Below, in pieces: positions 6,186-64,000 of a DNA stretch of 64,000 nucleotides. The notes beneath the pieces were generated by a model. It had not been told where the DNA came from, made no database searches, and was given only the letters and a program-made list of their open reading frames with translations. Positions within the stretch are counted from its first letter, which is position 1, and each line of letters starts with the position of its first letter. This DNA comes from an uncultured Ferruginibacter sp. GTDB taxonomy: Bacteria > Bacteroidota > Bacteroidia > Chitinophagales > Chitinophagaceae. Location: positions 3,387 to 67,386 of the forward strand of contig CAYVLT010000001.1 in assembly GCA_964452405.1 (NCBI GenBank), given 5' to 3'. Made by a program: the position numbers and the translations under genes.

Positions 6186-7703
6186 TTAATTATATCCTGG
6201 ATTTTGAACAAGCTTGGTGTTAGTCATGTCGCTGATAGGAATCGGCAGAATTTCATTTTTGCCAGCCACAAAACCATTGGCAGATAAAGCTTCTGCAGCT
6301 TTGCCTGTGCGCACGAGGTCGAAGAATCGATGCCCTTCAGTGGCCAGTTCCAACCTTCTTTCGTTATAAATAACATCGAGTGTTACCGGGATGGAAGGCA
6401 GGCCTACACGGGCTCTTACAGCGTCAACCAAAGCCTGCGCCCTTGCTGTATTTGCGCCGCTGTGAACAAGTGCTTCTGCTTCCATCAGGTAAGTATCCGC
6501 CAGCCGGATCTCGATATAGTCCAGTTGATAATTCAATTCAGTGGTACCAAGCAGCGGGGTTTTATAGGCAATCTTGGGACCGTATTTTTCAACGAAGTAA
6601 CCGGTATTATCGGCACCCGCTTCGTAACTGCTTCCGGTTGCCTGTGTAAGGCTATCCATGTTGATGCAGGTATAGTTATACCTCGGATCGTTTTTGATCG
6701 CATTTACAAGCGACATAGTAAGCGGACAGAATCCCCAGCCAGACGCATAAATGGGTCCATTGTATCCTCTTGCACCGATCATCTGCACCATTACATTTCC
6801 TTCAAATGCACCCCATGCACCCCAGTCTTGCTGTGCTTTGTTGGTATGCACGATCTCAAAAATTGATTCTGCATTGAATTTGTTGGAAGGAACAAAGATA
6901 TCCGGGAAATTAGGCAGCAACTGGTAACCAAAGCTGCTTACACCGCCTGGTGTACCATTCACATCGGCCAACTGAGCCGCTGCTTCAGTCCATTTTTCTT
7001 CGTATAGGTACACTTTGCCGAGCAATGCTTTGGCAGCACCTTTGGTAACTCTTCCTCCTTCAGTTACCGGAACATTCAGTGGCAAGTTAGGTTCTGCAAT
7101 GGCATCGGTTAAATCGCTTTCAATTTGCGCATACACGGCCTCGGGAGTTGCCTGGGTTATGTTGTAAATATCCGAAGTAGGGATAGCTGCAGTGATCAAC
7201 GGAACGTTTTTAAACAAACGTACCAGGTCAAAATAGTAGTAAGCCCTTAAAAATTTAACCTCTGCAGTGTACCTGCCTTTAGTGGCTTCAGTAAGATCCG
7301 GAACTCCGTCCATCTTTGTCAATAGCAGGTTAGCCCTGTAAATGCCGGTATAGTTCCGGCCCCAAAGATCACCTTGTGGTCCTTGTGCGAGGTTAACGGT
7401 GAATTTATCCCAGGAAGTCCAGTTAACCTGGTCTGGCCCGGGGGCTGCACCACCAGCTGCACAATCATCTGAGGCAGTATTCAACAAACCGAGTTTGCTT
7501 GAATAGCTTGATCCTGTTTCTGAACCCAGGGGATCGTAAACGGCTACCAGCCCTTTGAAAACTTCAGCAGCATTTTTATAAAACTGCGTCTCCAGGGTGG
7601 TTTGATTTCCCGTCGGGTTCACGTCGAGAAAACTTTTTTTACATGAATTTAAAACCAGCAATGCTGTGACAGACAAAGCCAGGTATTTTATATTTTTTTT
7701 CAT
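6186..7703 (-). CDS. susD: SusD/RagB family glycan-binding lipoprotein
   Basis: Lipobox LNSC; EVKFLRAYYYFDLVRLF, IRLADTYLMEAEA, ERRLELATEGHRFFDLVR, QNPGY end. Confidence 0.95.
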   Translation of the reverse strand: MKKNIKYLALSVTALLVLNSCKKSFLDVNPTGNQTTLETQFYKNAAEVFKGLVAVYDPLGSETGSSYSSKLGLLNTASDDCAAGGAAPGPDQVNWTSWDKFTVNLAQGPQGDLWGRNYTGIYRANLLLTKMDGVPDLTEATKGRYTAEVKFLRAYYYFDLVRLFKNVPLITAAIPTSDIYNITQATPEAVYAQIESDLTDAIAEPNLPLNVPVTEGGRVTKGAAKALLGKVYLYEEKWTEAAAQLADVNGTPGGVSSFGYQLLPNFPDIFVPSNKFNAESIFEIVHTNKAQQDWGAWGAFEGNVMVQMIGARGYNGPIYASGWGFCPLTMSLVNAIKNDPRYNYTCINMDSLTQATGSSYEAGADNTGYFVEKYGPKIAYKTPLLGTTELNYQLDYIEIRLADTYLMEAEALVHSGANTARAQALVDAVRARVGLPSIPVTLDVIYNERRLELATEGHRFFDLVRTGKAAEALSANGFVAGKNEILPIPISDMTNTKLVQNPGYN

Positions 7704-49503: not shown

Positions 49504-50919
49504 TTATTTTACGAAGAAGGAAGTAATATAATAAACGATGCCGGCCAGCAGTGCGCTCACAGGAATGGTTAAAACCCAGGCCCACAGCAGGTTTACTGTA
49601 ACGCCCCATCGAACGGCGCTCAAACGTTTTGTAGCGCCCACGCCAATGATGGATCCGGTAATGGTATGGGTGGTGCTCACCGGTATGCCCATCTGTTCGG
49701 TCATGAACAGGGTAAGGGAGCCTGAAGTTTCTGCTGCCACACCTTCCAGCGGTGTAACCTTGGTGATCTTGGTTCCCATTGTTTTAACGATCTTCCAGCC
49801 GCCGCTCATCGTACCCAGTCCCATAGCTGTATAGCAGGCCAGTGGAATCCAGTACAATTCTTTCAATACAGTACCTACATCGGTATATTGGGCAGCATTA
49901 TAGGAAACAAAAGCCGCGGCAATAATGCCCATCACTTTTTGAGCATCGTTACCACCATGCCCGATACTGAAAGCCGCTGAAGACAGTAACTGTAAGCGCT
50001 TGAACATTTTTGCAGTGCGGTAAGCGTTGGGAGATTTGATCTTTTCAGAATACACATACGCACAGATAAAAATAAAGATCATGATCATAACCCCGTATAC
50101 GATCACCGAGTTATCGGCTTTTTTAAAATTCTTGGTCAGCTTTGCCACATCTGCACCCGGGTCAACTTTTTGCCGGATCGCTTCCGCCAGTTTTTCGGCA
50201 CCGATCTTTTTATAGTCGCTTAACAGTGGCGCAGCTGCAGCAACATTGCTTAATGCCTTTTCATACGCCGCCTGGTCGGACGGACCGGATGCGGCATTCT
50301 TTTTTAGATTTTCAATATTGTAGTACTTAACAAGATTCTCCTCCAGTTTATTTTGTTCAAAATGTGCAAATAAAAACCAGGTGAAAATGGCGGCCAGTAT
50401 AATCATTCCCACCCTGGCCCACACGTTTCGCATGATCGTGACTACGGTAATGAAAATGGAGATCACCATCCCAATGATGGGGGCCAGGAAAATGAAGAGA
50501 ATAATCTCTGTGATCTTGCCAATTTCAACGATGGCGCTGATGGGCTGAAAGCCTTTTACGAGGAAAGCGTGGGTAACAGCTGCGCCGGCAAAGCCCCCGA
50601 TGAGTGTATGCGAAGAAGAGGAAGGAATGCCGTACCACCAGGTGAGCAGGTTCCAGAAGATTGCTGCAATCATACCCGCCAGGATCACCGGCAGGGTGAT
50701 GAACTCAGCATGAACCGTTTTACCAATTGTATTGGCCACGGCGTGGTCCTTGAAAATAAAGTAAGCGATAAAATTAAAGGTAGCAGCCCACACAACCGCC
50801 TGGAAAGGCGTTAGTACCTTAGTGGAAACAATAGTGGCGATTGAATTTGCAGCGTCATGAAAGCCATTGATATAATCGAAAATGAGCGACAGTACAACGA
50901 TTAAGATAAGCAGAGTCAT
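49504..50919 (-). CDS. pit: Inorganic phosphate transporter, PiT family, with central insertion
   Basis: NGFHDAANSIAT and GHGGNDAQK signatures; GIPSSSSH; PVSTTH. Confidence 0.92.
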   Translation of the reverse strand: MTLLILIVVLSLIFDYINGFHDAANSIATIVSTKVLTPFQAVVWAATFNFIAYFIFKDHAVANTIGKTVHAEFITLPVILAGMIAAIFWNLLTWWYGIPSSSSHTLIGGFAGAAVTHAFLVKGFQPISAIVEIGKITEIILFIFLAPIIGMVISIFITVVTIMRNVWARVGMIILAAIFTWFLFAHFEQNKLEENLVKYYNIENLKKNAASGPSDQAAYEKALSNVAAAAPLLSDYKKIGAEKLAEAIRQKVDPGADVAKLTKNFKKADNSVIVYGVMIMIFIFICAYVYSEKIKSPNAYRTAKMFKRLQLLSSAAFSIGHGGNDAQKVMGIIAAAFVSYNAAQYTDVGTVLKELYWIPLACYTAMGLGTMSGGWKIVKTMGTKITKVTPLEGVAAETSGSLTLFMTEQMGIPVSTTHTITGSIIGVGATKRLSAVRWGVTVNLLWAWVLTIPVSALLAGIVYYITSFFVK

Positions 50920-51001
50920 ATAAAGATTTTGAGATCAAACGCTGCTGAAGGTGGTTGCCAGATCGTGTACCAGGCCCGTTCCCTTCGCGGCGATCGGTCT
51001 G

Positions 51002-51649
51002 TTAAGCGTATTTTACGATAATCGATTCTATCACGTTGGCTGCATCCTCACATTTATCGGTTACTATTTCCATTACCTGGTATATCTCTCTTTTTTTGAT
51101 CACTTCTTTCGCATCGGGTTCGGTGGCGAACAGGCGTTCGATGCTCATGTCAAATATATCGTCGGCCTGGTTTTCCACGCTGTTAATGGCCACCAGTGCA
51201 TCCGTGATCTGGCGCATATTTTTCATGTTCCTCAATTCTGTTACAGCCTTGTGCACCTGTACACAACCGTTGGCGATGAGGTCAGCCATTTTCTGCATAC
51301 CGGTATCGTTTGGGTTCACGCGGTAAAAATTAATTTTTTTAGCAGAAGCATAAATGTAGTCGGCAATATCATCCAGGGCGCTGGCCAGGTAGTGGATATC
51401 CTCACGGTCAAAAGGAGTGATAAAGTTTTTTCCCAGCTCGGTAAAAATGTTATGGGTAAAATCATCATTCACATGCTCCATGTCCTCAATTTCCTGGATC
51501 AACTGGGCACGTTTATCAAAGTCGGGTTCATTCACCACCTCCTTCAATTTTTCTCCCATTTTCACCAACTCTTCTGATACATTTTCAAACAACTGGAAGA
51601 AGATTCTGTCTTTGGGTAAAAAAATCTTGAGTATTGAATTGAAGCCCAT
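51002..51649 (-). CDS. DUF47 (PhoU-like) phosphate transport regulator
   Basis: FITPFDREDIHYLASALDDIAD, ENQADD, DKCEDAANVIESI; start moved to MGFNSIL; co-transcribed with pit; TACTTTTG -7 box at 51665-72. Confidence 0.92.
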   Translation of the reverse strand: MGFNSILKIFLPKDRIFFQLFENVSEELVKMGEKLKEVVNEPDFDKRAQLIQEIEDMEHVNDDFTHNIFTELGKNFITPFDREDIHYLASALDDIADYIYASAKKINFYRVNPNDTGMQKMADLIANGCVQVHKAVTELRNMKNMRQITDALVAINSVENQADDIFDMSIERLFATEPDAKEVIKKREIYQVMEIVTDKCEDAANVIESIIVKYA

Positions 51650-51907
51650 AATTGAAATTTTGGGCAAAAGTAACTGGATTGCCTTGCAACGCCGGGTATT
51701 TACAATTCTTAATGATAAATTAATATGCTGCCAGGTTGTTGAATTAAACAATCATCGAGTTAACTATTAGAATTTGTCAAAAAATCTGGTGTGTTCAAAA
51801 GCAATTTTCTAAATTAAGAGCTTGATTTAATATTAAAAATACATGTTATTTAAGTTTATATGTAAATAATTTTTCTGCAATGCAACAATTTTTGTCTTTC
51901 CTTTGTC

Positions 51908-51915
51908 TACATTTG
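51908..51915 (+). promoter_or_regulatory. -7 box (TACATTTG) for the second susC
   Basis: Exact TAnnTTTG, 62 nt upstream of the ATG. Confidence 0.6.
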
Positions 51916-51977
51916 TGAAATGTATGTTAAATACATTATTTTTTATTTTTATATAATTAGCTAACCAAAATTGTTTT

Positions 51978-54900
51978 ATGAGAAAAATTGCATCACTTTT
52001 TGCAATGCTTATGCTATTTTCTGCATTGGCATTTGGTCAGGCCCGGACTATTACGGGTACCGTGATCAATGAGAAGGGAGAAGTAGTACCCGGTGTTTCC
52101 GTAAATGTTAAAGGAAAGGCAGGCGGTACAGCTGCTGACAGTAAAGGTCAGTTTACTATTACAGCCAATACTGGCGACAAGCTGATTATTACCGGTGTGA
52201 ACATCGACCCGGTAACAGTAACTGTTGGAACAGGAAATACGGTTGCTGTAAATGTGAAAACTGCTTTAGTAACCACGACGGAAGTAGTGGTAACCGCACT
52301 TGGTATCAGGAGGTCTGAGAAAAGTGTGGGATATGCAGTTTCAAAAGTTGATCCGAATGCACTCGTTCAGAAATCTGAACCAGATATGTTGAAAGGTCTG
52401 CAGGGTAAGGTACCTGGTGTAGATATCCGCACTTCTCAAGGTACGCCGGGTGCAGCTACCAGGATCCAGATCAGGGGTAACTCTTCACTCCTGCTGGAAA
52501 CACAACCGCTGATCGTGGTTGATGGAGTTCCCTACAGCAATGACCAGGTAACTACCAGCAGCCAAACTTCTGGTGGTACTGCTTATGGTAGCGGTATTGC
52601 TAACCTCGATCCAAATGACATTGAAAGTATGACCGTGTTGAAAGGTGCTGCTGCGGCTTCTTTGTATGGTTCAAGGGCATCCAGGGGCGTTGTGTTGATC
52701 ACTACTAAATCAGGTTCTGCAAAAAAAGGTGCTAAGCCACTGAACGTAAATTTCAGGAGTTCTTACTCAGTTGAAAAAATAGCCAACCTGCCCGACTATC
52801 AAAACAGCTACGGTGCAGGTGCACAGTTCAGGTATTCTAATTCGAACGGTTCCTGGGGTCCTAAATTCGGCCTCGGAAATGTATATGATGGAGGCGGTAA
52901 TGTAATCAGGACCAGCACTTCTGGTCTTGACTCAATTCCTGCCTGGGCAGAATACCTCAATGCTTACCCGGAATTGTTTTCAGCAAATGGTTATACTCCT
53001 TACAAAGCCTACCCGGATAACGTAAAAGAATTGTTCAGGAACGGTGCCGTTTATGAGAATTCAATTGCAGTGAACGGTGGTGATGCTAATAATTCTTTTG
53101 CTTTAACTGCCTCCAACTTAACCCACAACGGTTATGTTGAAAATTCAAGTTACAAAAAGAACAACATCGGCCTTGGTGGTCAGACGAAATATAAAAACCT
53201 GACCGTAGGCGCTAACTTCAGTTTTGCAAGGTCTAAGCAATTGGGTGGTTTCTTCGGTGAAAACCAGGTGAGCGGTGCTACTTCACAATTCGCCCGTTCA
53301 TTGTTCCTTGCCAGGAACTGGGATTTGAGCCTGCCTTACCAGGATGCTTTGGGTAAACCACTCATTCCTAACGGTGGTGCGCAGTTTGATAACCCACACT
53401 GGGCTGCCCTCAACAACGTAGCTACTACTATTGAAGAAAGAACAATTGCGGGTATCCGTCTTGGTTATAAAGTAAACAACTGGGTGAATGTTTCTTATAA
53501 TTTCGGCTTTAACTCTGTAGAGTTGGCAAGGGATGAAATTACCCAGGAATATTCAAGGGCTGCCAATGGATTGGGCCGGATCGTTGAAGATCACTACAAA
53601 GGACAGGAATTACAATCTACTTTGGTGATCGCTTTCAATCCCAAGATCGGTGGCGACTTCACTTTGGATGCTAAACTCGGACAGGACTACAACCAACGGA
53701 CTTCAAGAAGACAAACCAACACCGGTTTGGATTTCGTGGTTCCAAAAATTTACAACCTCGTAAACACAGCCACACAGAGCTTCGGTAATGACAATGTATT
53801 TAAAAGAAGAATCGTTGGTTTCTTTGCTGACGCGACTTTCGGCTACAAAAACTTTGCCTTCATCAATGCTTCTGTAAGGAACGACCGTACATCAACACTG
53901 CCTTATAAAAATGCCAGCTACTATTATCCTGGTGTATCTGCCTCTTTGGTGTTTACAGATGCACTTAAGATCAAGAACAACTGGTTGGATTATGGTAAGA
54001 TCAGGGTTGGTTGGGCAAAAGTGGGTAACGATGCTCCTTCCAATAACGGACAGGATGTATTTGTTATCAACCAAAACTTCCTTGGTCAGCCAAGCACCAG
54101 CCTGAACTCACAAACAATTGATCCAGATCTGACACCGGAATTTACCAAAGAACTGGAAGCCGGTATTGACCTGTATTTCTTCAAACGCAGGCTGGGCATT
54201 GATTTCACTGTATATAACAAAAAATCAACCAACCTTATTTATCCAATCTCAACTCCTGCAACTGTTGGTTACACCAGCTTCCTCACTAATATTGGTGAAA
54301 TCAGCAACAAGGGTGTTGAAATCGGTTTAACTGTAAGCCCGATCGTTACCAAAGGCTTTGTTTGGGAACTGCGTGCTTCATTTACCAAGAACAAAAACCT
54401 GGTGGTTAGCCTCGTAGATGGTTTGGAAAGAGCCCCACTCGGAGGTGGTTTTGCTGATGGTATCCAGGCTTACCTTGAACCAGGAATGCCTTACGGCTAC
54501 CTCCGCGGAAACAGGGCCGACAGAACTGCTGACGGTACATTGTTGATCAACCCGGCTACTGGTATGGTTATTGAAAGCCTTACACCTGGTATGATCGGCG
54601 ATCCAAACCCTGATTATAAATTAGGTATCACCAACACTATTTCTTACAAAGGCTTTACATTGAGCGGCCTGTTCGATATGACGAAAGGCGGTGACATTTA
54701 TTCAGTAACAGTTACTTCTTTGTTGGGTAGGGGTGTTACCAAAGCCAACGAAGACAGGGAAACAAACTGGGTGATTCCTGGCGTTTACGGAGATATCAAC
54801 ACACATGAAGTAATTAATGGTACCGATGGTAAACCAATTCAGAACCAAACACGTATTACTACTAACGACCTGTACTTTGCGCCAGGTGGTACAAGTGCAA

Positions 54901-55196
54901 CCTTTGCGATTAACGGTTCTGATGAATTCAACATCTACGATGCAACTGTTTACCGTTTGAGGGAAATAACATTAGGATACGACATTCCTAAAAAAGTATA
55001 TAATAAATGGGGATTGTCAAATGTACGTTTGAGTGTGAGCGGTCACAACCTTTGGTACCTGGCTCCAAACATTCCTAAGTACACCAACTTTGATCCTGAA
55101 GTTCAATCTTATGGTTCTTCTGCCGTTCAGGGCTTTGAGTTCTCAGCAGCTCCAACAACCAGGAGGTTCGGTATCAATCTTAATGTAACTTTTTAA
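51978..55196 (+). CDS. susC: SusC/RagA TonB-dependent transporter
   Basis: EVVVTALG, MTVLKGAAAASLYGSRASRGVVLITTKSG, PTTRRFGINLNVTF. Confidence 0.95.
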   Translation: MRKIASLFAMLMLFSALAFGQARTITGTVINEKGEVVPGVSVNVKGKAGGTAADSKGQFTITANTGDKLIITGVNIDPVTVTVGTGNTVAVNVKTALVTTTEVVVTALGIRRSEKSVGYAVSKVDPNALVQKSEPDMLKGLQGKVPGVDIRTSQGTPGAATRIQIRGNSSLLLETQPLIVVDGVPYSNDQVTTSSQTSGGTAYGSGIANLDPNDIESMTVLKGAAAASLYGSRASRGVVLITTKSGSAKKGAKPLNVNFRSSYSVEKIANLPDYQNSYGAGAQFRYSNSNGSWGPKFGLGNVYDGGGNVIRTSTSGLDSIPAWAEYLNAYPELFSANGYTPYKAYPDNVKELFRNGAVYENSIAVNGGDANNSFALTASNLTHNGYVENSSYKKNNIGLGGQTKYKNLTVGANFSFARSKQLGGFFGENQVSGATSQFARSLFLARNWDLSLPYQDALGKPLIPNGGAQFDNPHWAALNNVATTIEERTIAGIRLGYKVNNWVNVSYNFGFNSVELARDEITQEYSRAANGLGRIVEDHYKGQELQSTLVIAFNPKIGGDFTLDAKLGQDYNQRTSRRQTNTGLDFVVPKIYNLVNTATQSFGNDNVFKRRIVGFFADATFGYKNFAFINASVRNDRTSTLPYKNASYYYPGVSASLVFTDALKIKNNWLDYGKIRVGWAKVGNDAPSNNGQDVFVINQNFLGQPSTSLNSQTIDPDLTPEFTKELEAGIDLYFFKRRLGIDFTVYNKKSTNLIYPISTPATVGYTSFLTNIGEISNKGVEIGLTVSPIVTKGFVWELRASFTKNKNLVVSLVDGLERAPLGGGFADGIQAYLEPGMPYGYLRGNRADRTADGTLLINPATGMVIESLTPGMIGDPNPDYKLGITNTISYKGFTLSGLFDMTKGGDIYSVTVTSLLGRGVTKANEDRETNWVIPGVYGDINTHEVINGTDGKPIQNQTRITTNDLYFAPGGTSATFAINGSDEFNIYDATVYRLREITLGYDIPKKVYNKWGLSNVRLSVSGHNLWYLAPNIPKYTNFDPEVQSYGSSAVQGFEFSAAPTTRRFGINLNVTF

Positions 55197-55218
55197 TTAC
55201 TAACTAATTCTTTCTATT

Positions 55219-56892
55219 ATGATACGAAATAAAAAAATTCTGTTCATTTTAGCAGCTGTGCTGGTGCTTTCCGGAACAGCCTGTAAAAAATTCCTGGACG
55301 TAAACGCGAATCTGAATGATCCGCTGGCAGTTCCAACAGGGACACTGCTAACAACTGTTGAAAGAAACCTGGGAGATGAATTGTCTTATGGTGGTCTTTC
55401 ACTGCAGTTAGCTGTTTATATGCACCAGATGAGTACCAGGGAAACCGCTAACCAATATGGTGTTAGAGGAGCAACCCTTGATGGAGACTGGACTACTTTC
55501 TTCGGCCAGATCCTTCCTGATGTGGATGTGATCATCAAACAGGCAACCGCTGAAGATAATATGATCTATGCCGGTATCGCTAAAATTATCCGTGCATACA
55601 CTTACAGCCAGATCGTGGATGTTTGGGGAGATGTTCCCTACACCGAGTACAACAAGTTTAAAGAAGGTATCAAGCAACCATCTTTTGATGATGACGCTAC
55701 TATTTATCCAAAATTGCTTGCAATGCTGGATGAGGGTATCGCCGACATTCAAAATGCCGATTCAAAAAACCCTTCAAAACCTGGTGCAAACGATGTGATC
55801 TACAAAGGATCTACCGCTAACTGGATCAAGGCCGCCAACACCATCAAACTGAAATTGTACACACAGATAAGGAAAGTACAGGATGTAAGTGCAGAAGTTA
55901 CAGCATTGCTTAACAATCCTTCCTCTCTCATTAACTCAAATGCAGAAATGTTCGCCCTGCCTTATGGTCCATTGGGTGCTACTGATGACAGGAATCCGGG
56001 CTTTGGTGACTATGTTGCCACCCAGCGTTCAAATCATGTTAGTCCATGGTTTTATGAGATCCTGAAAGGATACAATCCGGATATCTTCACTGGTATCAGT
56101 GACCCAAGATTGAAATACTACATCTACAACCAGCTTACTCCTAGTGCTGCTGCACAGAGTAACACGGAGTACAGGGATGGAGCTTTTGTTTCTATCTACT
56201 TTGGCTCTACTGGTCCAAACAGGGATGGTAACCAGCAAAACTCAATTAGTTTGTTTGGTATTTATCCTGTAGGTGGACGTTACGATAATGGTGCTGGCGG
56301 AACTGCCAGTGCTTCAAGTGGAACAGGTGCTGCACCTTACAGGTTCATTACCTATGCTGACAGGTTGTTCCTTGAAGCAGAACTGATCAACACTGGTGTG
56401 ATAACCGGCGATGCAAGAACTGTTTTCAATAATGCATTGAAAGCATCTATGAGCCAGGTTGACTATGTTGTAACCAACTACGTTAAAACAAGCCAAACTG
56501 TTCCGGTGCTGGCAACGAGCACTGCTGCAACCAATTACATCACTGCTATCATGGATTTGTATGATGCTGCTTCCACCGACAGGCAGTTGGAATACATCAT
56601 GACAGAAAAATGGTTGTCTAGTGTAGGTTCTTCAGTAGATCAGTACACCGACTACCGCAGGACAGGATATCCAATTCTGTTCGATCCGGGTAACAACGCA
56701 ATGGCTCCAAGTGGATTTGTTCAACCTCCGGTTGATGGTAACCCATTTGTAACGCCTCAATTACCGGTTCCGGTGGCCAGGGGTGCTAACTTCCCGGTTT
56801 CATTACCATGGAGCCAAAATGAATTGGATTTGAACAGTAACGCTCCTACACAAAAACAAGCAGATACTTATAAAGTGTTCTGGATGCCGTAA
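55219..56892 (+). CDS. susD: SusD/RagB family lipoprotein (SusD-like_2 type)
   Basis: Lipobox GTAC; IAKIIRAYTYSQIVDVWGDVPY, IMTEKW, TDYRRTGYP, FWMP end. Confidence 0.92.
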   Translation: MIRNKKILFILAAVLVLSGTACKKFLDVNANLNDPLAVPTGTLLTTVERNLGDELSYGGLSLQLAVYMHQMSTRETANQYGVRGATLDGDWTTFFGQILPDVDVIIKQATAEDNMIYAGIAKIIRAYTYSQIVDVWGDVPYTEYNKFKEGIKQPSFDDDATIYPKLLAMLDEGIADIQNADSKNPSKPGANDVIYKGSTANWIKAANTIKLKLYTQIRKVQDVSAEVTALLNNPSSLINSNAEMFALPYGPLGATDDRNPGFGDYVATQRSNHVSPWFYEILKGYNPDIFTGISDPRLKYYIYNQLTPSAAAQSNTEYRDGAFVSIYFGSTGPNRDGNQQNSISLFGIYPVGGRYDNGAGGTASASSGTGAAPYRFITYADRLFLEAELINTGVITGDARTVFNNALKASMSQVDYVVTNYVKTSQTVPVLATSTAATNYITAIMDLYDAASTDRQLEYIMTEKWLSSVGSSVDQYTDYRRTGYPILFDPGNNAMAPSGFVQPPVDGNPFVTPQLPVPVARGANFPVSLPWSQNELDLNSNAPTQKQADTYKVFWMP

Positions 56893-56927
56893 ATAGTAAA
56901 CACAATCCATTGGAAATTAAAAAAATT

Positions 56928-57842
56928 ATGAAGATGAAAAAAAACATATTTTATTTTATTCTTGCGGTAAGTGTGTTATTTACTGCATGTAAAAAGAACG
57001 ACGGACCTATTCCGAAAAGTATCGCCCTTGACAGGCAGGATGTGCAGCCTCAGGTAACAAAAAATGCATCCGGTAGCCAGGCGATTGACGTATTGAACCT
57101 GAATAATTTCAGTGCAGTAGTAAACATAGGTACTTATACCAGTGATGTTCCTGTGAAAATGGACGTTGTGGTAAGAAAGAATAACCTTAACTCATCCACC
57201 AAAGTTGTACAGGCTGGTCTTACCACCTTCCCAACATCTGTTACCATTACGGCTGCTCAATTAGAGGCTCTGTTTGGTGTTCCGGTGGCATTAAATGATG
57301 CATACGACATCAGTGTTGATTACTACACTTCTGACAGTAAAAAATACGAGGCATACCCATTGATCCCGGGAAGCCCAAGCGTATTTGGTTATGGCTCCGG
57401 TGTTTCTTCTCAGCCAGGCGCAAGCCTTTCTGTACAGTACAAAGCGATCTGTGCTTATGATCCTGCGATTTATGAAGGAACATTTGTTTTGGATTCTGAT
57501 GACTGGGCTGATTATTATGCCGGTGACCTGTTCACCTTAACAAGGGTGGATGATACACACTTCACAATGATCGCTGAGAATCCGATTCCTGAAAATCCGG
57601 TGCCTCTGCAGGTTACTGTAAATCCAAACGATAACAGTGTTTCTGTTGCCAAGCAATCTGTAGGATCTGCATGGGGTTATGCAGGACCAGGCACTTACCC
57701 GGCTCCCTTCATGCTCACTGCCGGATCTGCTTCTTCCAGCTTTGTTTCTCCCTGCGACCAATCAGTAACTTTTAACTTCAGTTATGGTTACAGTGCAGGT
57801 ACATTCAGCGGAACTTATCCAATGGTGCTTCACAAGCAATAA
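56928..57842 (+). CDS. Uncharacterised surface lipoprotein following SusD
   Basis: Lipobox FTAC-KKND; beta-rich two-domain sequence; start at 56928 or 56934. Confidence 0.8.
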   Translation: MKMKKNIFYFILAVSVLFTACKKNDGPIPKSIALDRQDVQPQVTKNASGSQAIDVLNLNNFSAVVNIGTYTSDVPVKMDVVVRKNNLNSSTKVVQAGLTTFPTSVTITAAQLEALFGVPVALNDAYDISVDYYTSDSKKYEAYPLIPGSPSVFGYGSGVSSQPGASLSVQYKAICAYDPAIYEGTFVLDSDDWADYYAGDLFTLTRVDDTHFTMIAENPIPENPVPLQVTVNPNDNSVSVAKQSVGSAWGYAGPGTYPAPFMLTAGSASSSFVSPCDQSVTFNFSYGYSAGTFSGTYPMVLHKQ

Positions 57843-57860
57843 TTCTTTACCTGATATTTG

Positions 57861-57894
57861 AAGAGGCTGCAGTAATGCAGCCTCTTTTGTTTTA
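57861..57894 (+). terminator. Intrinsic terminator of the susCD-lipoprotein operon
   Basis: AAGAGGCTGCA / TGCAGCCTCTT 11-bp stem, 4-nt loop, then TTGTTTT. Confidence 0.9.
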
Positions 57895-57910
57895 GTGCGA
57901 TGATAGCTGG

Positions 57911-57989
57911 GTTAACATTGCCTTAATGTTGTGATAACATTTCCGTAATTCTTCATTCACATTCCCATAACATTGAAGTTATCTCTTTG
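57911..57989 (+). promoter_or_regulatory. Six-unit 11-bp-period direct-repeat array (Pho-box-like) abutting a degenerate -7 box
   Basis: TAACATT 57913, TAATGTT 57924, TAACATT 57935, TAATTCT 57946, TCACATT 57957, TAACATT 57968; TCTCTTTG at 57982-89. Confidence 0.7.
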
Positions 57990-58004
57990 CATAAAATTAA
58001 ATGC

Positions 58005-60794
58005 ATGAGATACGTCCCGTTTACTATCCTCTTTCTCTTAATTTCCTCTTTTTCATTTGCCCAAAAAACCAAGATCGAAGGAAAGGTGAGTGATGCCAAA
58101 ACAGGCAATCCACTATCAGGAGTTTCCGTATCCATCAACGGCGACAAACCCATTGCGGTGTCCAATACCGACGGTTATTTCACGCTTACCGTAGAGCCAG
58201 GTAAAAAATACAGCATTAAGCTTACCTACGTTGGATATCAGCCTAAAGAATTAGTGGATGTGGAAGCTACGGCAGGCCAGGTAACACACCTGGATATTGT
58301 AATTGATAAGGCCAGTAAAACGGAGGAGGAAGTGGTGGTTAGATCCTCTGCAAGAAAGGAAAGCCAGGCTGCCCTGATCTCTTACCAGAAAAACACCACG
58401 GTTGTGGCACAGGTGATTAGCGCAGAAGCCATCAGGAGATCGCCGGATAAAAATACGGGTGAGGTGTTGAAGCGGGTTCCAGGCGCTTCACTCCAGGAAG
58501 GTAAATATCTCGTGGTTCGTGGTTTGGCCGACCGTTATAACCAGGCAATGCTCAACGGTGTATTACTGAGCAGCACAGAGCCTGATCGTAAAACATTTAG
58601 TTTCGACATCATTCCCTCTTCGCTGATCGATAATATCATCATCAATAAAGCATTTATTCCGGAACTGCCGGGCGAATGGGCTGGTGGTTTGATACAGGTA
58701 AACACCAAGGATGTACCGGCCCGTAATTTTTTCAACGTACAGATCGGTACCGGGTTTAACACAAATACCATTGGTAAGGATTTTTACGATTACAAAGGAA
58801 GTAGTACAGATTGGCTGGGTTTTGATAATGGCGTAAGAAGTTTGCCAGCCAACTTCCCCACCAAGACAGCTTTTGCAGACCTCACGCCGTCGGAAAAGGC
58901 ACAATATGGTCAACAACTGGAAAATACCTGGAGCACCCAAAATAAAGGAGCGGGAATGACCAATACCTTTAACCAAAGCGTTGCATTCAATGGCGGATTC
59001 AATGCCAGGTTAAGTGATAACAATAAGCTTGCTGCGATTTTTTCGGTTAACTACAATCGTAGCAACAGGAGGCTGGCCTACAATAACCAGGTATACACAG
59101 TCACCAACAATATCCCCAGCCCCAGCTTTGACTATGATAATACAAAGTACAGCAAGGATGTGCTGGCAGGTGTACTGGCTAATATCACCCTTCAGTTAGG
59201 AAGCAACAGCAAGATATCTGTTAAAAACCTGCTTAATGTTAACACCACAAATTATTCAACCATCAGGAGCGGGTATAATTTTGATGCCGGTGAAAAGGTA
59301 AAGGCCACCGAACTTGCCTTTAAAGCAAATACCTTTTTTAATACACAAATAACCGGGGAGCATAACCTGAAAAACATTGCGGCTAAACTGCACTGGTTCG
59401 GCAGCTTCAATATTCTGGACCAGTACATCCCCGATCAACGCCGCCTGGAGTACATTCCTGAAAACCCTGCTGATCCCAACTCGAACTACATTGCTTCTAT
59501 CGGCGCTTCCAACTCTTCACAAAAAAGTGGCAGTCGCTATTTTGGTTTCCTGAACGATTATGTTTATACAGCGGGTGGCGATGCAAGCAAGGAATTCAAG
59601 ATCGGCAAACTCGTTCAAACCGTTAAGGGTGGATATTTCTTCCAGGTAAAGGACAGGTTATTTGATTCAAGACCTTTCTCCATTTACCTGCCTACTGATA
59701 ATAAGGCATTGTTGCGTTTGCCGGCCGACCAGATCTTTGCTGCGGAAAATTTTGGCAACGGTACCGACAATAAGTTTGCTTTCAACGAACTGTCGAGTCC
59801 CAATTACCGGTACATCGCTAATTCAATTTTAAATGCAGGCTTTTTACAATTCGATAATCAACTTACCGAACAATTAAGAATAGTGTGGGGTGTAAGGGTG
59901 GAAGATTTTGATCAGGTGCTGGGAAGTGTTAAGAAGAGTGACCCAAGACATTTGCATACCGAGGTAAGGGACTATTTGCCGGGTGTAAATATCACCTACA
60001 AAGCGAACAGTAAAACCAATATCAGGGTTTCAGGGTCTCAAACCGTTATCAGGCCTGAGTTTCGTGAGTTAAGTTCATTCTCGTTCTATGATTTTGACCT
60101 TGGTGCAAGTGTACAGGGTTTCACCGGGCTTGTACGCACAAAAGTTACCAACTTCGACGTGAGGTACGAACTGTATCCAAAGGCCGGCGAATTATTCACC
60201 TTCGGTGTATTTTATAAATATTTTGATAAGCCAATCGAAGCTTATTTTAACCCAAGCTCTGGCGGAGCCAGTATTTATAATTTCATCAATGCAAAAGAAG
60301 CAAACAGCTTCGGCGCAGAACTCGAGTTCAGGAAAAAACTTGATTTCAGTGAGGCGCTTAAAAACTTTACCCTGCAGGGAAATCTCTCTTACATCTATAA
60401 CAGGGTATCAAAAATCGGGAATGACGCTGAACGCCCGATGCAGGGTCAGAGTCCATACCTGTTGAATGCCGGCATCCAGTATGACCTGGCCAAGCCAGGA
60501 TTCAGTGCCACTTTATTATTCAACCAGATCGGCCGAAGAATCACATTTGTGGGTGGTGGTGATCAACCTGCTATCTGGGAAAACCCCCGTCCCGTACTGG
60601 ATCTCCAATTCGCTAAAAAAGTGCTGAAAAATAAAGGAGAAGTGAAGTTGAATATCTCCGACATCATCAATAAGCAGGCGATTTTCTATACCGATCTAAA
60701 CGACAATAAGAAATACGATAAAAACATTGATGCGTTTGCAATCAGGAGAAATTATGGCTCCAATGTAAGCATCAGCTTCGGTTACAATTTTTAA
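58005..60794 (+). CDS. TonB-dependent receptor with N-terminal carboxypeptidase-regulatory-like domain (non-SusC type)
   Basis: Signal peptide; ISAEAIRRSPDKNTGEVLKRVPG, VRGLADRYN plug; FRPEFREL-like, QGQSPY, SISFGYNF; start moved to MRYVPF. Confidence 0.92.
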   Translation: MRYVPFTILFLLISSFSFAQKTKIEGKVSDAKTGNPLSGVSVSINGDKPIAVSNTDGYFTLTVEPGKKYSIKLTYVGYQPKELVDVEATAGQVTHLDIVIDKASKTEEEVVVRSSARKESQAALISYQKNTTVVAQVISAEAIRRSPDKNTGEVLKRVPGASLQEGKYLVVRGLADRYNQAMLNGVLLSSTEPDRKTFSFDIIPSSLIDNIIINKAFIPELPGEWAGGLIQVNTKDVPARNFFNVQIGTGFNTNTIGKDFYDYKGSSTDWLGFDNGVRSLPANFPTKTAFADLTPSEKAQYGQQLENTWSTQNKGAGMTNTFNQSVAFNGGFNARLSDNNKLAAIFSVNYNRSNRRLAYNNQVYTVTNNIPSPSFDYDNTKYSKDVLAGVLANITLQLGSNSKISVKNLLNVNTTNYSTIRSGYNFDAGEKVKATELAFKANTFFNTQITGEHNLKNIAAKLHWFGSFNILDQYIPDQRRLEYIPENPADPNSNYIASIGASNSSQKSGSRYFGFLNDYVYTAGGDASKEFKIGKLVQTVKGGYFFQVKDRLFDSRPFSIYLPTDNKALLRLPADQIFAAENFGNGTDNKFAFNELSSPNYRYIANSILNAGFLQFDNQLTEQLRIVWGVRVEDFDQVLGSVKKSDPRHLHTEVRDYLPGVNITYKANSKTNIRVSGSQTVIRPEFRELSSFSFYDFDLGASVQGFTGLVRTKVTNFDVRYELYPKAGELFTFGVFYKYFDKPIEAYFNPSSGGASIYNFINAKEANSFGAELEFRKKLDFSEALKNFTLQGNLSYIYNRVSKIGNDAERPMQGQSPYLLNAGIQYDLAKPGFSATLLFNQIGRRITFVGGGDQPAIWENPRPVLDLQFAKKVLKNKGEVKLNISDIINKQAIFYTDLNDNKKYDKNIDAFAIRRNYGSNVSISFGYNF

Positions 60795-60835
60795 TCACCC
60801 AGTTAATAAATAAAAAACAATTTAAATCATAAGAC

Positions 60836-62248
60836 ATGAAGAAATTATTTCTTTACAGCGTATTGATCGCAGCAACCTCAATGGGATGCCGTAAAATTGA
60901 AGTTGATGGTGGCTCAACCGTTGTTACCACACCGCCCGCCGGAGAAACAGAGAATACAATATTAGAAGGAAGGATAACAGCTAACCGTACACTAAAAGCT
61001 GACTACGTATATAAACTGCGTGGCCTGGTATATGTTACCAATGGTGCAATACTTACCATTGAGCCGGGTACAAAAATCGTAGGTGAAAATGGTAAAACCG
61101 GTGGTTTGATCATCACCAGGAGTTCAAAGATTATTGCAGATGGCACTGCTGCCAAGCCGATTGTTTTTACTTCCGAAGCAGCTACCCCGCAACGTGGCGA
61201 CTGGGCCGGACTTGTGTTATTAGGCCAGGCACCCACCAATGCTTCTTTTAATGGCGTTCAGGGTGTAGGCGCTGTAGAGGGAGGAATCAATAACAGCGAC
61301 GGGCTTGGTTTGTACGGAACTCCTTCCAGCCAGGGTCAGAATCCAGCTGATAACAGCGGCATTCTCAGGTATGTGCGTATTGAATACGCAGGCTATGCGT
61401 TTTTGCCAGATAATGAGATCAACGGTTTAACCCTTGGAGGTGTTGGTTCAGGAACTGTGATCGATAATGTTCAGGTGTCTTATGCCAATGATGATTCTTT
61501 CGAATGGTTTGGCGGTACAGTAAATTGCTCACACCTCATTTCTTTCCGTACACTGGATGATGATTTTGATACAGATAATGGGTACAGCGGCAAAGTGCAA
61601 TTCGGTATTTCATTGCGTGATTCATCAGTAGCCGATATTTCAAAAAGTGAAGCTTTTGAAAGTGATAACGACGCAGCAGGAAGTTCACTATTGCCACAAA
61701 CATCTGCAGTATTTTCAAACATGACGGTAATGGGTCCAAAAGAAACACTTGCCAATACAGGTAACAGCCTGTTTGTTTGGGGAGCGCAGATCAGGAGGAA
61801 TTCCAGCCTGTCGATCTTTAACTCCATCGTTATGGGGTATCCTAATGGTTTATACATCGATGCTACCAAGGGCGTTCCAACCGACAACAATATTCCTTCT
61901 TCATTATTTGTTCAGAACACCATCATCGCGGGATGTCCAACCCCGGTATTGTACAGCATTGCCGGCAATGTGAACACGCCGCTTACTCCTAATACCACTG
62001 CTACCATCAGGGCATGGTTCGAAACGCCCGCTTACAACAACAGCATTTTCACAACCAATGCTGAAGTGGGATTAACAGCGCCATTCAATTATACCAATCC
62101 TGATTTTAACCCAACTGCATCTTCTGCTGCTACAAGTGGAGCTGCTTTTTCACATCCTAAACTTACCACAGGGTTTACTTCGGTAGCTTATAAAGGAGCT
62201 TGTGCAGTGGGTGATACCTGGTGGAAGACCTGGACAAAATTTAATTAA
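60836..62248 (+). CDS. Surface lipoprotein with predicted parallel beta-helix, partner of the TonB receptor
   Basis: Lipobox SMGC; LTIEPGT, PIVFTS, GDWAGLVLLG, LRYVRIEYAG, NGLTLGGVGSGT, DDSFEWFGG, DDDFDTD. Confidence 0.8.
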   Translation: MKKLFLYSVLIAATSMGCRKIEVDGGSTVVTTPPAGETENTILEGRITANRTLKADYVYKLRGLVYVTNGAILTIEPGTKIVGENGKTGGLIITRSSKIIADGTAAKPIVFTSEAATPQRGDWAGLVLLGQAPTNASFNGVQGVGAVEGGINNSDGLGLYGTPSSQGQNPADNSGILRYVRIEYAGYAFLPDNEINGLTLGGVGSGTVIDNVQVSYANDDSFEWFGGTVNCSHLISFRTLDDDFDTDNGYSGKVQFGISLRDSSVADISKSEAFESDNDAAGSSLLPQTSAVFSNMTVMGPKETLANTGNSLFVWGAQIRRNSSLSIFNSIVMGYPNGLYIDATKGVPTDNNIPSSLFVQNTIIAGCPTPVLYSIAGNVNTPLTPNTTATIRAWFETPAYNNSIFTTNAEVGLTAPFNYTNPDFNPTASSAATSGAAFSHPKLTTGFTSVAYKGACAVGDTWWKTWTKFN

Positions 62249-62266
62249 ATCCCTAAAACACTACGC

Positions 62267-62298
62267 AAAAAAGCAGCCTTCAAAAAGCTGCTTTTTTA
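62267..62298 (+). terminator. Intrinsic terminator
   Basis: AAAAAAGCAGC (62267-77) / GCTGCTTTTTT (62287-97). Confidence 0.85.
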
Positions 62299-62317
62299 TT
62301 TACATTACTTTTGACGA

Positions 62318-62845
62318 ATGAAAAAGCTATTGCTCCCGGTTATTTTGCTGTTCAACATTTTCTCCTGTTCTCCGGCAAATGAAAAGCAACAAACGGAGGT
62401 AAAAATTCCTTTGAGTGAAGCAGTTCAGCAAATGCTGGACTCTATGAAACAGGCAAGTGACACTGTTTATACCAAACCATACAAGCGAACCGATTTTGTT
62501 ACGGCCACCTATTATGTAAACAGGGCCAGGAATATTGTTTGCCAGGTGATGAAAGATTCGGCCGGAACCACCAGGCAGATCATTACAACGGAAAAGGGTA
62601 TCCGTACTTTCTTTGCAGGTTACTATGCCAACGGCCAGTTGCAGGCAAGGTTGGCATTGGATTCTTTTGGCCAGTACCACGGACCCGCTGAATACTATTT
62701 TGAAAATGGTAATAAACAGGCCGCGGGAAACTATAAAGATGGCCTTCACACCGGCACCTGGATAAATTATAGTGAAGATGGAAAAAAGCTTTCAACCGAT
62801 GAATATGACAACAATGGTCAAAAAACCAGGAGTGAAAATTTATAA
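62318..62845 (+). CDS. MORN-variant repeat lipoprotein (YwqK-antitoxin-like repeats)
   Basis: Lipobox FSC; YHGPAEYYFENGNKQAAGNYKDGLHTGTWINYSEDGK. Confidence 0.75.
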   Translation: MKKLLLPVILLFNIFSCSPANEKQQTEVKIPLSEAVQQMLDSMKQASDTVYTKPYKRTDFVTATYYVNRARNIVCQVMKDSAGTTRQIITTEKGIRTFFAGYYANGQLQARLALDSFGQYHGPAEYYFENGNKQAAGNYKDGLHTGTWINYSEDGKKLSTDEYDNNGQKTRSENL

Positions 62846-62854
62846 TTCTATTGA

Positions 62855-62908
62855 TAACGCTACGGTAACAACCGCTTAATGATGTGGTAATAGCCGGCCG
62901 GTATCTTG
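62855..62908 (+). promoter_or_regulatory. Four-unit 11-bp-period TAAY repeat array (second Pho-box-like site)
   Basis: TAACGCT 62855, TAACAAC 62866, TAATGAT 62877, TAATAGC 62888; TATCTTG at 62902-08. Confidence 0.5.
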
Positions 62909-63033
62909 CAGCGGAAAGTTTTTAGCGATCAATAGCAATTTAAAACAAGTTCCTTAAGCAAATAGCAATTTTTCTCATGCTTGTACCACCCGGTAATCCT
63001 GCCGGGTGGTTTGTTTTTTATACCTTTGGAATT

Positions 63034-63435
63034 ATGAGAAATATTTTGGCTGTACTGGTTTTTTTAGGGTCACTGGCTTCCTGTACACATCCTGATGCCA
63101 AACTGCTGGAGAAGATTTCAAATGCCGACAGTGTTGCTATCAATTACTTCAAAGGTGATGGAACAATGGACTCCGTATTGAAGGTGAAGATCGTAAGGGA
63201 TACCCTAACCATTGGAAAGCTGTCCTCGCTGGTTGCTGCAAAAGCCATTGATCTGAGAAATGATTGCGGGTTAGACGGTTCTATTCACTATTTTAAGAAC
63301 AATGTAGTGGTGCAGGACATCAACTTTAGAATGAATGCAGACAAATGCAACCAGTTTTCTTATAAGTTAAATGGTAAGTACGGAGCCACTGAATTGTCGG
63401 CAGCAGCTAAGCAGTTGTTGTTATCACTGCAATAA
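63034..63435 (+). CDS. Hypothetical lipoprotein
   Basis: Start moved to MRNILAV after TACCTTTG (63021-28); lipobox LASC. Confidence 0.75.
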   Translation: MRNILAVLVFLGSLASCTHPDAKLLEKISNADSVAINYFKGDGTMDSVLKVKIVRDTLTIGKLSSLVAAKAIDLRNDCGLDGSIHYFKNNVVVQDINFRMNADKCNQFSYKLNGKYGATELSAAAKQLLLSLQ

Positions 63436-63440
63436 TCATC

Positions 63441-64000
63441 TCAGGCATTCGCCATTAACATGTCTCCTTTAAAACCGGTTTGTTTTACCTGCCTGTCACG
63501 GATGGAGGGCATCGCTTTTTTGAGAACCAGGTCAATGATGTCGCTGGTTTCATTTTTGTAATCCACTTTCAGTTCCTGCGGATTGTTTAACCAGGCTTCT
63601 ACTTTGTGGATGTGTTTTTTCTTTAAACTTTTTATCACCGGCACACCTAATTCTGCAGCGCCCGCTGCGTTGCAGTGTTGCTCGTATTGTTGTTTCATTG
63701 GAATCACCAACACTTTCTTTTTCATATACAATGCCTCTGCCGGCGTTTCAAAGCCGGCGCCGCACAAGATCCCTTCGCAGCTGGTGAAACTTTCTGTAAA
63801 AGCTTCGGCATTCACCGGTTGTACCCGGCAGTTTTTTTCCTGGTATTTTTTCCGGGTGTGTTTTGAAAATACATCCCATTGAATGTGCCTGAAATTTGAG
63901 AGGAAGCCAATGATCTTTTTATCGTCGTATGCGGGCAGGTACACTGTATAATGTCCCTTGTTGCAGCATGCAGCATTTCTAATTTCGCTACGGATCACGG
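63441..64000 (-). CDS. Glycosyltransferase family protein (MJ1255/VC2487-like GT-B), C-terminal part
   Basis: VYLPAY, CGAGFETPAEALY, LVIPMKQQYEQHCNA; frame runs off the right edge. Confidence 0.82.
   Translation of the reverse strand, partial: VIRSEIRNAACCNKGHYTVYLPAYDDKKIIGFLSNFRHIQWDVFSKHTRKKYQEKNCRVQPVNAEAFTESFTSCEGILCGAGFETPAEALYMKKKVLVIPMKQQYEQHCNAAGAAELGVPVIKSLKKKHIHKVEAWLNNPQELKVDYKNETSDIIDLVLKKAMPSIRDRQVKQTGFKGDMLMANA

Follow-up and report, generated by a model that had tools for sequence, protein, structure and literature searches.

Known Pho operators and phosphate regulons

What is known of the phosphate regulon of Bacteroidota comes chiefly from measurements of expression. When F. 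johnsoniae is depleted of Pi, some of its strongest induction is seen in genes that encode a TonB-dependent transporter paired with a hypothetical lipoprotein. The phoBR cluster contains one of these pairs together with a glycosyltransferase gene, and low Pi also induces PlcP (PMC8115612). That study measured expression, and no operator was defined (PMC8115612). [quoted passage not shown] The literature that we searched contained no definition of a Pho box for Bacteroidota.

The cyanobacterial SphR Pho box consists of three tandem 8-bp repeats PyTTAAPyPy(T/A) separated by 3-bp spacers. The PhoP boxes of B. subtilis, studied by the Hulett laboratory, reportedly have the form TT(A/T/C)ACA with a period of about 11 bp; at least four repeats are said to be needed, with dimers oligomerising along the DNA. 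The textbook Pho box is built of 11-nt direct-repeat units, in each of which seven bases are conserved and the other four less so; the winged-helix domains of a phosphorylated OmpR-family regulator occupy these units head to tail (PMC4415409). In E. coli it is situated about 10 bp upstream of the -10 box in place of a good -35 box, and serves to activate pst along with further genes of the phosphate-starvation response (PMC4415409). The PhoP operators of S. coelicolor are simple or complex and contain a variable number of 11-nt units of unequal strength (PMC4415409).

Array and promoter of the receptor gene

The window, that is, the whole analysed stretch of 64,000 nucleotides from an uncultured Ferruginibacter sp., contains six repeat units with the consensus CGTAACATT upstream of a TonB-dependent receptor gene (Table 1). 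The heptamers TAACATT, TAATGTT, TAACATT, TAATTCT, TCACATT and TAACATT start at 57913, 57924, 57935, 57946, 57957 and 57968, respectively, the spacing being exactly 11 bp. This agrees with the sequence-only reading of the region, which had listed three perfect TAACATT heptamers and three variants at this spacing. The unit scores alternate between strong and weak (12.0, 6.0, 11.5, 5.0, 6.5 and 12.5 bits). The last unit is followed after 7 nt by the -7 box and after 30 nt by the start codon of the receptor gene (58005). A palindromic reading, AACATT-N5-AATGTT, was dropped, as the orthologs carry a direct TAACAT at that position.

Compared with the housekeeping promoter of Bacteroidota (-33 TTTG, -7 TAnnTTTG), the receptor promoter matches neither element well: the -7 box reads TCTCTTTG, and the -33 position is occupied by ATTCACATTCC. 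With the predicted transcription start set at approximately 57994, the array spans positions from about -83 to -18, so that unit 2, counted from the promoter, covers -33 and unit 1 falls into the spacer. Poor -33 and -7 elements fit dependence on an activator. The weakened -7 box of the sequence-only reading is indeed there, and the activator-dependent layout proposed with it holds at the sequence level.

The SusC/SusD/310-aa operon upstream ends in an intrinsic terminator. Since this terminator closes the upstream operon, the receptor gene has a separate promoter, and the array belongs to it.

Table 1. Features of the receptor locus and its surroundings (positions in the window)
Feature	Position	Strand	Sequence or remarks
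pit/DUF47 operon	49504-51751	-	no Pho-box array
Intrinsic terminator of the upstream SusC/SusD/310-aa operon	57861..57893	+	AAGAGGCTGCA-gtaa-TGCAGCCTCTT, then T-run; perfect inverted repeat, 11 nt, 100% complementary
Six 11-bp direct-repeat units	57911..57976	+	GTTAACATTGC, CTTAATGTTGT, GATAACATTTC, CGTAATTCTTC, ATTCACATTCC, CATAACATTGA
Variant TTCAC unit (unit 2 from the promoter)	57955..57965	+	ATTCACATTCC; over the expected Bacteroidota -33 element
Weak -7 box	57982..57989	+	TCTCTTTG; Bacteroidota consensus TAnnTTTG
Predicted transcription start	57993..57996	+	from the usual -7 box position; leader about 10-12 nt
TonB-dependent receptor, 929 aa	58005..60794	+	CarboxypepD_reg, Plug, beta-barrel; not SusC/RagA type
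Lipoprotein, 470 aa	60836..62248	+	PF28492; invariant Cys18; named only 'hypothetical' in all sources
MORN-repeat protein, 175 aa	62318..62845	+	possibly last gene of the receptor operon
Second, weaker four-unit array	62853..62896	+	GATAACGCT, GGTAACAAC, CTTAATGAT, GGTAATAGC; conserved in other genomes
-7-like element after the second array	62901-62908	+	GTATCTTG
Candidate small RNA, about 100 nt	62912..63019	+	conserved block TTCCTTAAGCAAATAGCAATTTTTCTCATGCTTGT at 62950-62984
Terminator hairpin of the candidate small RNA	62986-63009	+	CCACCCGG/CCGGGTGG, then T-run (to 63019)
Small lipoprotein, 133 aa	63034..63435	+	own good -7 box TACCTTTG at 63021-63028; ortholog in G014
agt glycosyltransferase, 3' part	63441..63998	-	PF13528; convergent to the receptor locus

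Genes of the locus

The receptor gives no match to TIGR04056, the SusC/RagA model, and a SusD domain is absent from its lipoprotein partner. The upstream pair at 51978-56892 does fit the definition of a SusC/SusD polysaccharide-utilisation pair; together with the 310-aa protein (51978-57842) it has neither a glycoside hydrolase partner nor a Pho-box array. Within the genus, the 470-aa lipoprotein is highly conserved, with identities above 80%. A sequence search of PDB with this protein gave no match, and its AlphaFold model is poor (pLDDT 44, short strands only).

The small lipoprotein gene probably starts at ATG 63034, which gives a lipoprotein signal peptide. The 152-aa open reading frame listed for this gene (62977-63435) was rejected, as its start is too early and lies inside the candidate small RNA region. 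Upstream of agt, past the window end, there is a plcP-like metallophosphoesterase gene; the two form a lipid-remodelling pair that continues to G000:C1:68668, and the plcP/agt promoter is lost at the contig end.

Gene order of the receptor operon clearly resembles that of the Pi-induced clusters of F. johnsoniae with an FI, FII or FIII lipoprotein, where a transporter not of the SusC type is likewise followed by an uncharacterised surface lipoprotein, and where the neighbours again include phoBR, a glycosyltransferase, PlcP and Pit (PMC8115612). What marks the FI-FIII class is a pectin-lyase-like beta-helix fold of the lipoprotein; the likeness of the receptor operon to these clusters is one of gene order. 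By analogy, the operon may be controlled in a similar way.

Distinctness of the array in the genome

Counting both strands, the 4.9-Mb assembly contains only 643 copies of the heptamer TAACATT. An exact search of the whole genome found no other copies spaced by multiples of 11 outside the receptor promoter. The sequence-only reading had suggested scanning the genome with a weight matrix made of the six units. Such a matrix turned out to be overfitted and produced ambiguous matches, and it was replaced by a matrix built only from orthologous promoters of other genomes, which avoids circularity. With the latter, the receptor array is singled out: its six-unit score at the 11-bp spacing is 52.5 bits, the next best genomic site scoring 18.5 bits, and at control spacings of 8-14 bp no site in the genome exceeds 19.5 bits. 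A chance origin of the receptor array is excluded.

The genome-wide scan for further arrays in this fragmented assembly yielded weak candidates only. A weaker array precedes a gene for an S1/P1 nuclease (PF02265) in G000:C217, around position 1028 on the minus strand. Another weaker array, in G000:C100 around 5365, also on the minus strand, precedes a gene that by eye resembles an alpha-oxoamine synthase (serine palmitoyltransferase-like), with an acyltransferase-like gene behind it. The two loci could be further members of the regulon.

Conservation of the array

Orthologs of the receptor were found in 46 of 61 related genomes. When 24 genus-level orthologous promoters were aligned on TTTG of the -7 box, the units occupied the same columns in all of them, and 114 units yielded the consensus c-g-T-A-A-C-A-T-T-n-n.

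A second, independent set comprised 59 promoters from named genomes of Ferruginibacter, Flavisolibacter, Terrimonas and Ginsengibacter. The T of the proximal TAACAT lies exactly 18 nt before TTTG of the -7 box in 58 of these 59 Chitinophagaceae promoters. Four to six in-phase units are present in 56 promoters, and a seventh unit is almost never there. The octamer TCTCTTTG is identical in 31 of the 59, the canonical TA being retained in only three, and the gap between TTTG and ATG is 15-17 nt in most. Unit 2 from the promoter matches TAACAT in only 35 of the 59 promoters, compared to 56-57 matches at positions 1, 3 and 4. Its variant TTCA(C/T) is itself conserved in the orthologs, the consensus of this position being nTTcACnTTGn.

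The 4-nt spacers between the units vary freely, whereas the TAACA bases and the register are fixed across about 60 species. Conserved cores, free spacers and fixed register form the signature of a protein-binding operator that is locked to the site where polymerase binds. The sequence-only reading had named absence of the periodicity from orthologous promoters as an observation that would speak against it; on the contrary, both periodicity and register are kept.

Arrays upstream of phosphate genes in relatives

No pst genes were found in this genome. For this reason the test of association with pst was moved to the relatives, and rests on them. A pattern scan of 41 congeners revealed arrays outside the receptor promoters as well; matches with two mismatches are partly noise, a control pattern having matched at approximately half the rate. 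G022 has an array and a -7 box in front of an outer-membrane protein gene, after which come PstS (PF12849) and PstC. In G029, a DUF47 gene on the minus strand is followed by an array, receptor, lipoprotein, a second array, an outer-membrane protein, pstSCAB, phoU and a third array. In G079, the order is receptor, lipoprotein, array, pstSCAB-phoU, phoR and phoB. PstB and PhoU of G029 score above the NCBIfam cut-offs; the kinase of G079 matches PnpS/PhoR best, below the cut-offs of these models.

The pstS gene is present in only three of the 61 genus genomes, and in two of the three the pst operon adjoins the receptor/lipoprotein operon. Most members of the genus seem to rely on Pit and the receptor system. 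Beyond the genus, pst operons in several other families of Bacteroidia are preceded by [G/T]TAACA units at 11 bp and then by a TTTG box. No clear array was seen within the stretch examined upstream of pst in family f73 (five loci in four genomes).

An independent test was provided by the operons of plcP (a metallophosphoesterase) and agt (PF13528), whose products act jointly in the remodelling of membrane lipids. In 17-18 of 30 congeners, the 200 nt upstream of these operons contain an array scoring 14 bits or more, and the same threshold was reached in only three of 120 tests with control spacings. Upstream of the plcP orthologs at loci L093-L103, the array is separated from plcP by a conserved open reading frame of some 35 aa (MKNIKYFFLKLSVRIFLPMLSAFYPALKFYKIH), observed in more than 10 genomes.

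The sequence-only reading had favoured phosphate-starvation control, citing the proximity of pit and DUF47. The reason given does not stand: there is no array in the promoter of these genes, in the intergenic region 51752-51977 shared with SusC, and thus they provide context only. The proposal itself is favoured on other grounds, namely by the predicted arrays before pst and plcP/agt in the relatives. Arrays before unrelated genes, such as those of metal or envelope regulons, had been put forward as evidence that would count against it; the arrays outside the receptor family precede phosphate genes.

Candidate regulator

The genome encodes a candidate PhoB (G000 C157:5907-6566) with a PhoR-like kinase next to it (6614-7690). 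The regulator is 79.5% identical to the one encoded beside pstSCAB-phoU in G079. It is also the best match in the genome to the PhoB model, with 223 bits, which is below the cut-off of this model of proteobacterial PhoB. Full-length regulators of the OmpR family number eight in this genome.

Beside phoB and phoR lie two divergent genes, one PAP2-like and the other a second plcP-like gene (G000:C157:9356-10220), with weak arrays on both strands of the short intergenic region between them. The PAP2-like gene is followed by a 512-aa membrane glycosyltransferase-like gene.

Interpretation of the array

The receptor array has tandem 11-bp repeats with about seven conserved and four variable bases, as a Pho box does, and its distance to the -7 box of a weak promoter is constant. 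The enterobacterial core CTGTCAT is absent from it, the core being TAACAT(T). Taking together the conserved register, the arrays before pstSCAB-phoU and plcP/agt in relatives and the phoB/phoR pair encoded in the genome, the interpretation of the array as a Pho box operator, that is, a predicted PhoB site conferring control by phosphate starvation, is well supported, and we consider it very probable.

The 11-bp period of direct repeats is common to the whole OmpR/PhoB family, so the array could in principle be an operator of another member of that family, responding not to Pi but to iron or another nutrient, envelope stress or an organic-phosphorus substrate. Similar half-sites are conceivable for some of the eight full-length members encoded here, and TonB-dependent receptors are often under metal control. 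On the other hand, the arrays stand directly before pstSCAB-phoU and beside phoBR in relatives, as well as before plcP/agt, and no iron or envelope genes were seen among the array-bearing promoters examined, which makes this explanation unlikely. Still less probable is a locus-specific regulator of polysaccharide utilisation, either a hybrid two-component protein with an AraC-type domain or a SusR-like one, sensing the substrate of the receptor. The receptor locus does follow a SusC/SusD pair, and such proteins are generally known to be able to bind direct repeats. However, no gene of this kind lies beside the receptor gene in the window or in the relatives, the receptor does not belong to the SusC type, and many genomes carry the motif at phosphate genes that are unlinked to this locus.

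Finally, the repeat might have no protein-specific role, being a product of chance or slippage or a phased DNA-bending element, given that helical phasing alone can influence promoter strength. This is difficult to reconcile with a score of 52.5 bits where nothing else in the genome exceeds 18.5-19.5 bits, or with base-specific conservation of TAACA in a fixed register in about 60 species while the spacers are free to vary, and we regard it as extremely improbable.

If the array is indeed a Pho box, its action may be envisaged as follows. Under phosphate limitation, PhoR would phosphorylate PhoB, the OmpR-family regulator encoded on contig C157. The winged-helix domains of PhoB would bind the six 11-bp units head to tail on one face of the DNA, probably as three cooperating dimers, each occupying one strong and one weak unit. 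The two proximal protomers would cover the -33 region together with the spacer, replacing the missing -33 and -7 contacts, and proximal PhoB would recruit or stabilise RNA polymerase, switching on the genes of the receptor, the lipoprotein and possibly the MORN-repeat protein. We infer PhoB as the binding protein, the arrangement of its dimers, the transcription start and low phosphate as the signal.

Second array and candidate small RNA

Downstream of the gene for the MORN-repeat protein, the second array and its -7-like element precede an element that looks like a phosphate-controlled small RNA, judging by its sequence and position (Table 1). Of the 80 Chitinophagaceae loci examined, 16 have a 3' block TTCCTTAAGCAA..AGCAA..TTCTCATGCTT together with the hairpin after the lipoprotein gene, with the orientation unchanged. 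Compensatory changes among relatives are seen in the stem of the terminator. Raw matches to the small-RNA motif number 22, six of which are not the element, and nine of the 22 are preceded by an array scoring 14 bits or more. In G029 the element directly follows phoU. A search of Rfam with the region 57700-63300 gave no family match. Pairing of the candidate RNA with the start-codon region of the receptor gene was considered and rejected, as the complementarity of 8-9 nt is no better than that of random windows.

At loci L075, L076, L078 and L081, a three- to four-unit TAACA array lies in antisense orientation just past the small-RNA terminator and is preceded by the conserved sequence AAATGTGCATAG; these arrays have no -7 box in register. 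At L071 (G014:C78), three copies of a similar element stand within 1.3 kb of sequence, and none is followed by a gene.

Comparison with Pho boxes of other bacteria

The array shares with the Pho box of E. coli PhoB the tandem 11-nt units that take the place of a good upstream promoter element. The latter, however, has two to four units with the core CTGTCAT and a -35/-10 promoter, whereas here there are six units with the core TAACAT and the -33/-7 promoter of Bacteroidota. The hexamer of the B. subtilis PhoP box is nearly identical, and both TTAACA and TTCACA occur in the receptor array; this resemblance is a lead only, and B. subtilis belongs to another phylum, with another sigma factor and promoter architecture. 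The SphR Pho box has the same 11-bp period, a core containing TTAA and at least three units, but in the receptor array the core extends to TAACAT, and the regulator is orthologous to SphR at the family level only. Like the PhoP operators of S. coelicolor, the array consists of 11-nt units of unequal strength; the core in that high-GC actinobacterium, however, is GTTCACC.

Significance

Since the mechanism is a textbook one, the advance is an extension and not a new principle: the type of switch is familiar, and the sequence of the Bacteroidota operator is the addition. Whether a Pho box of the form [G/T]TAACAT at 11 bp, placed 18 nt from TTTG of the -7 box, is shared across the class Bacteroidia appears evenly balanced, judging by the promoters compared here. 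If it is, the phosphate regulon of the phylum would become readable from sequence, the receptor and the lipoprotein would form the principal route of phosphate-controlled uptake for a genus in which Pst has mostly been lost, and the Chitinophagaceae regulon would include a conserved, Pho-box-driven small RNA beside the receptor operon.

Bacteroidota play a major part in the recycling of organic phosphorus in soils, waters and the gut. Once validated, the motif with its strict register would allow phosphate-controlled genes to be predicted from genomes and metagenome bins, and a strong promoter under tight regulation would become available for work with Bacteroidota. The motif would also tie an abundant and uncharacterised pair of a receptor and a lipoprotein to phosphate scavenging.
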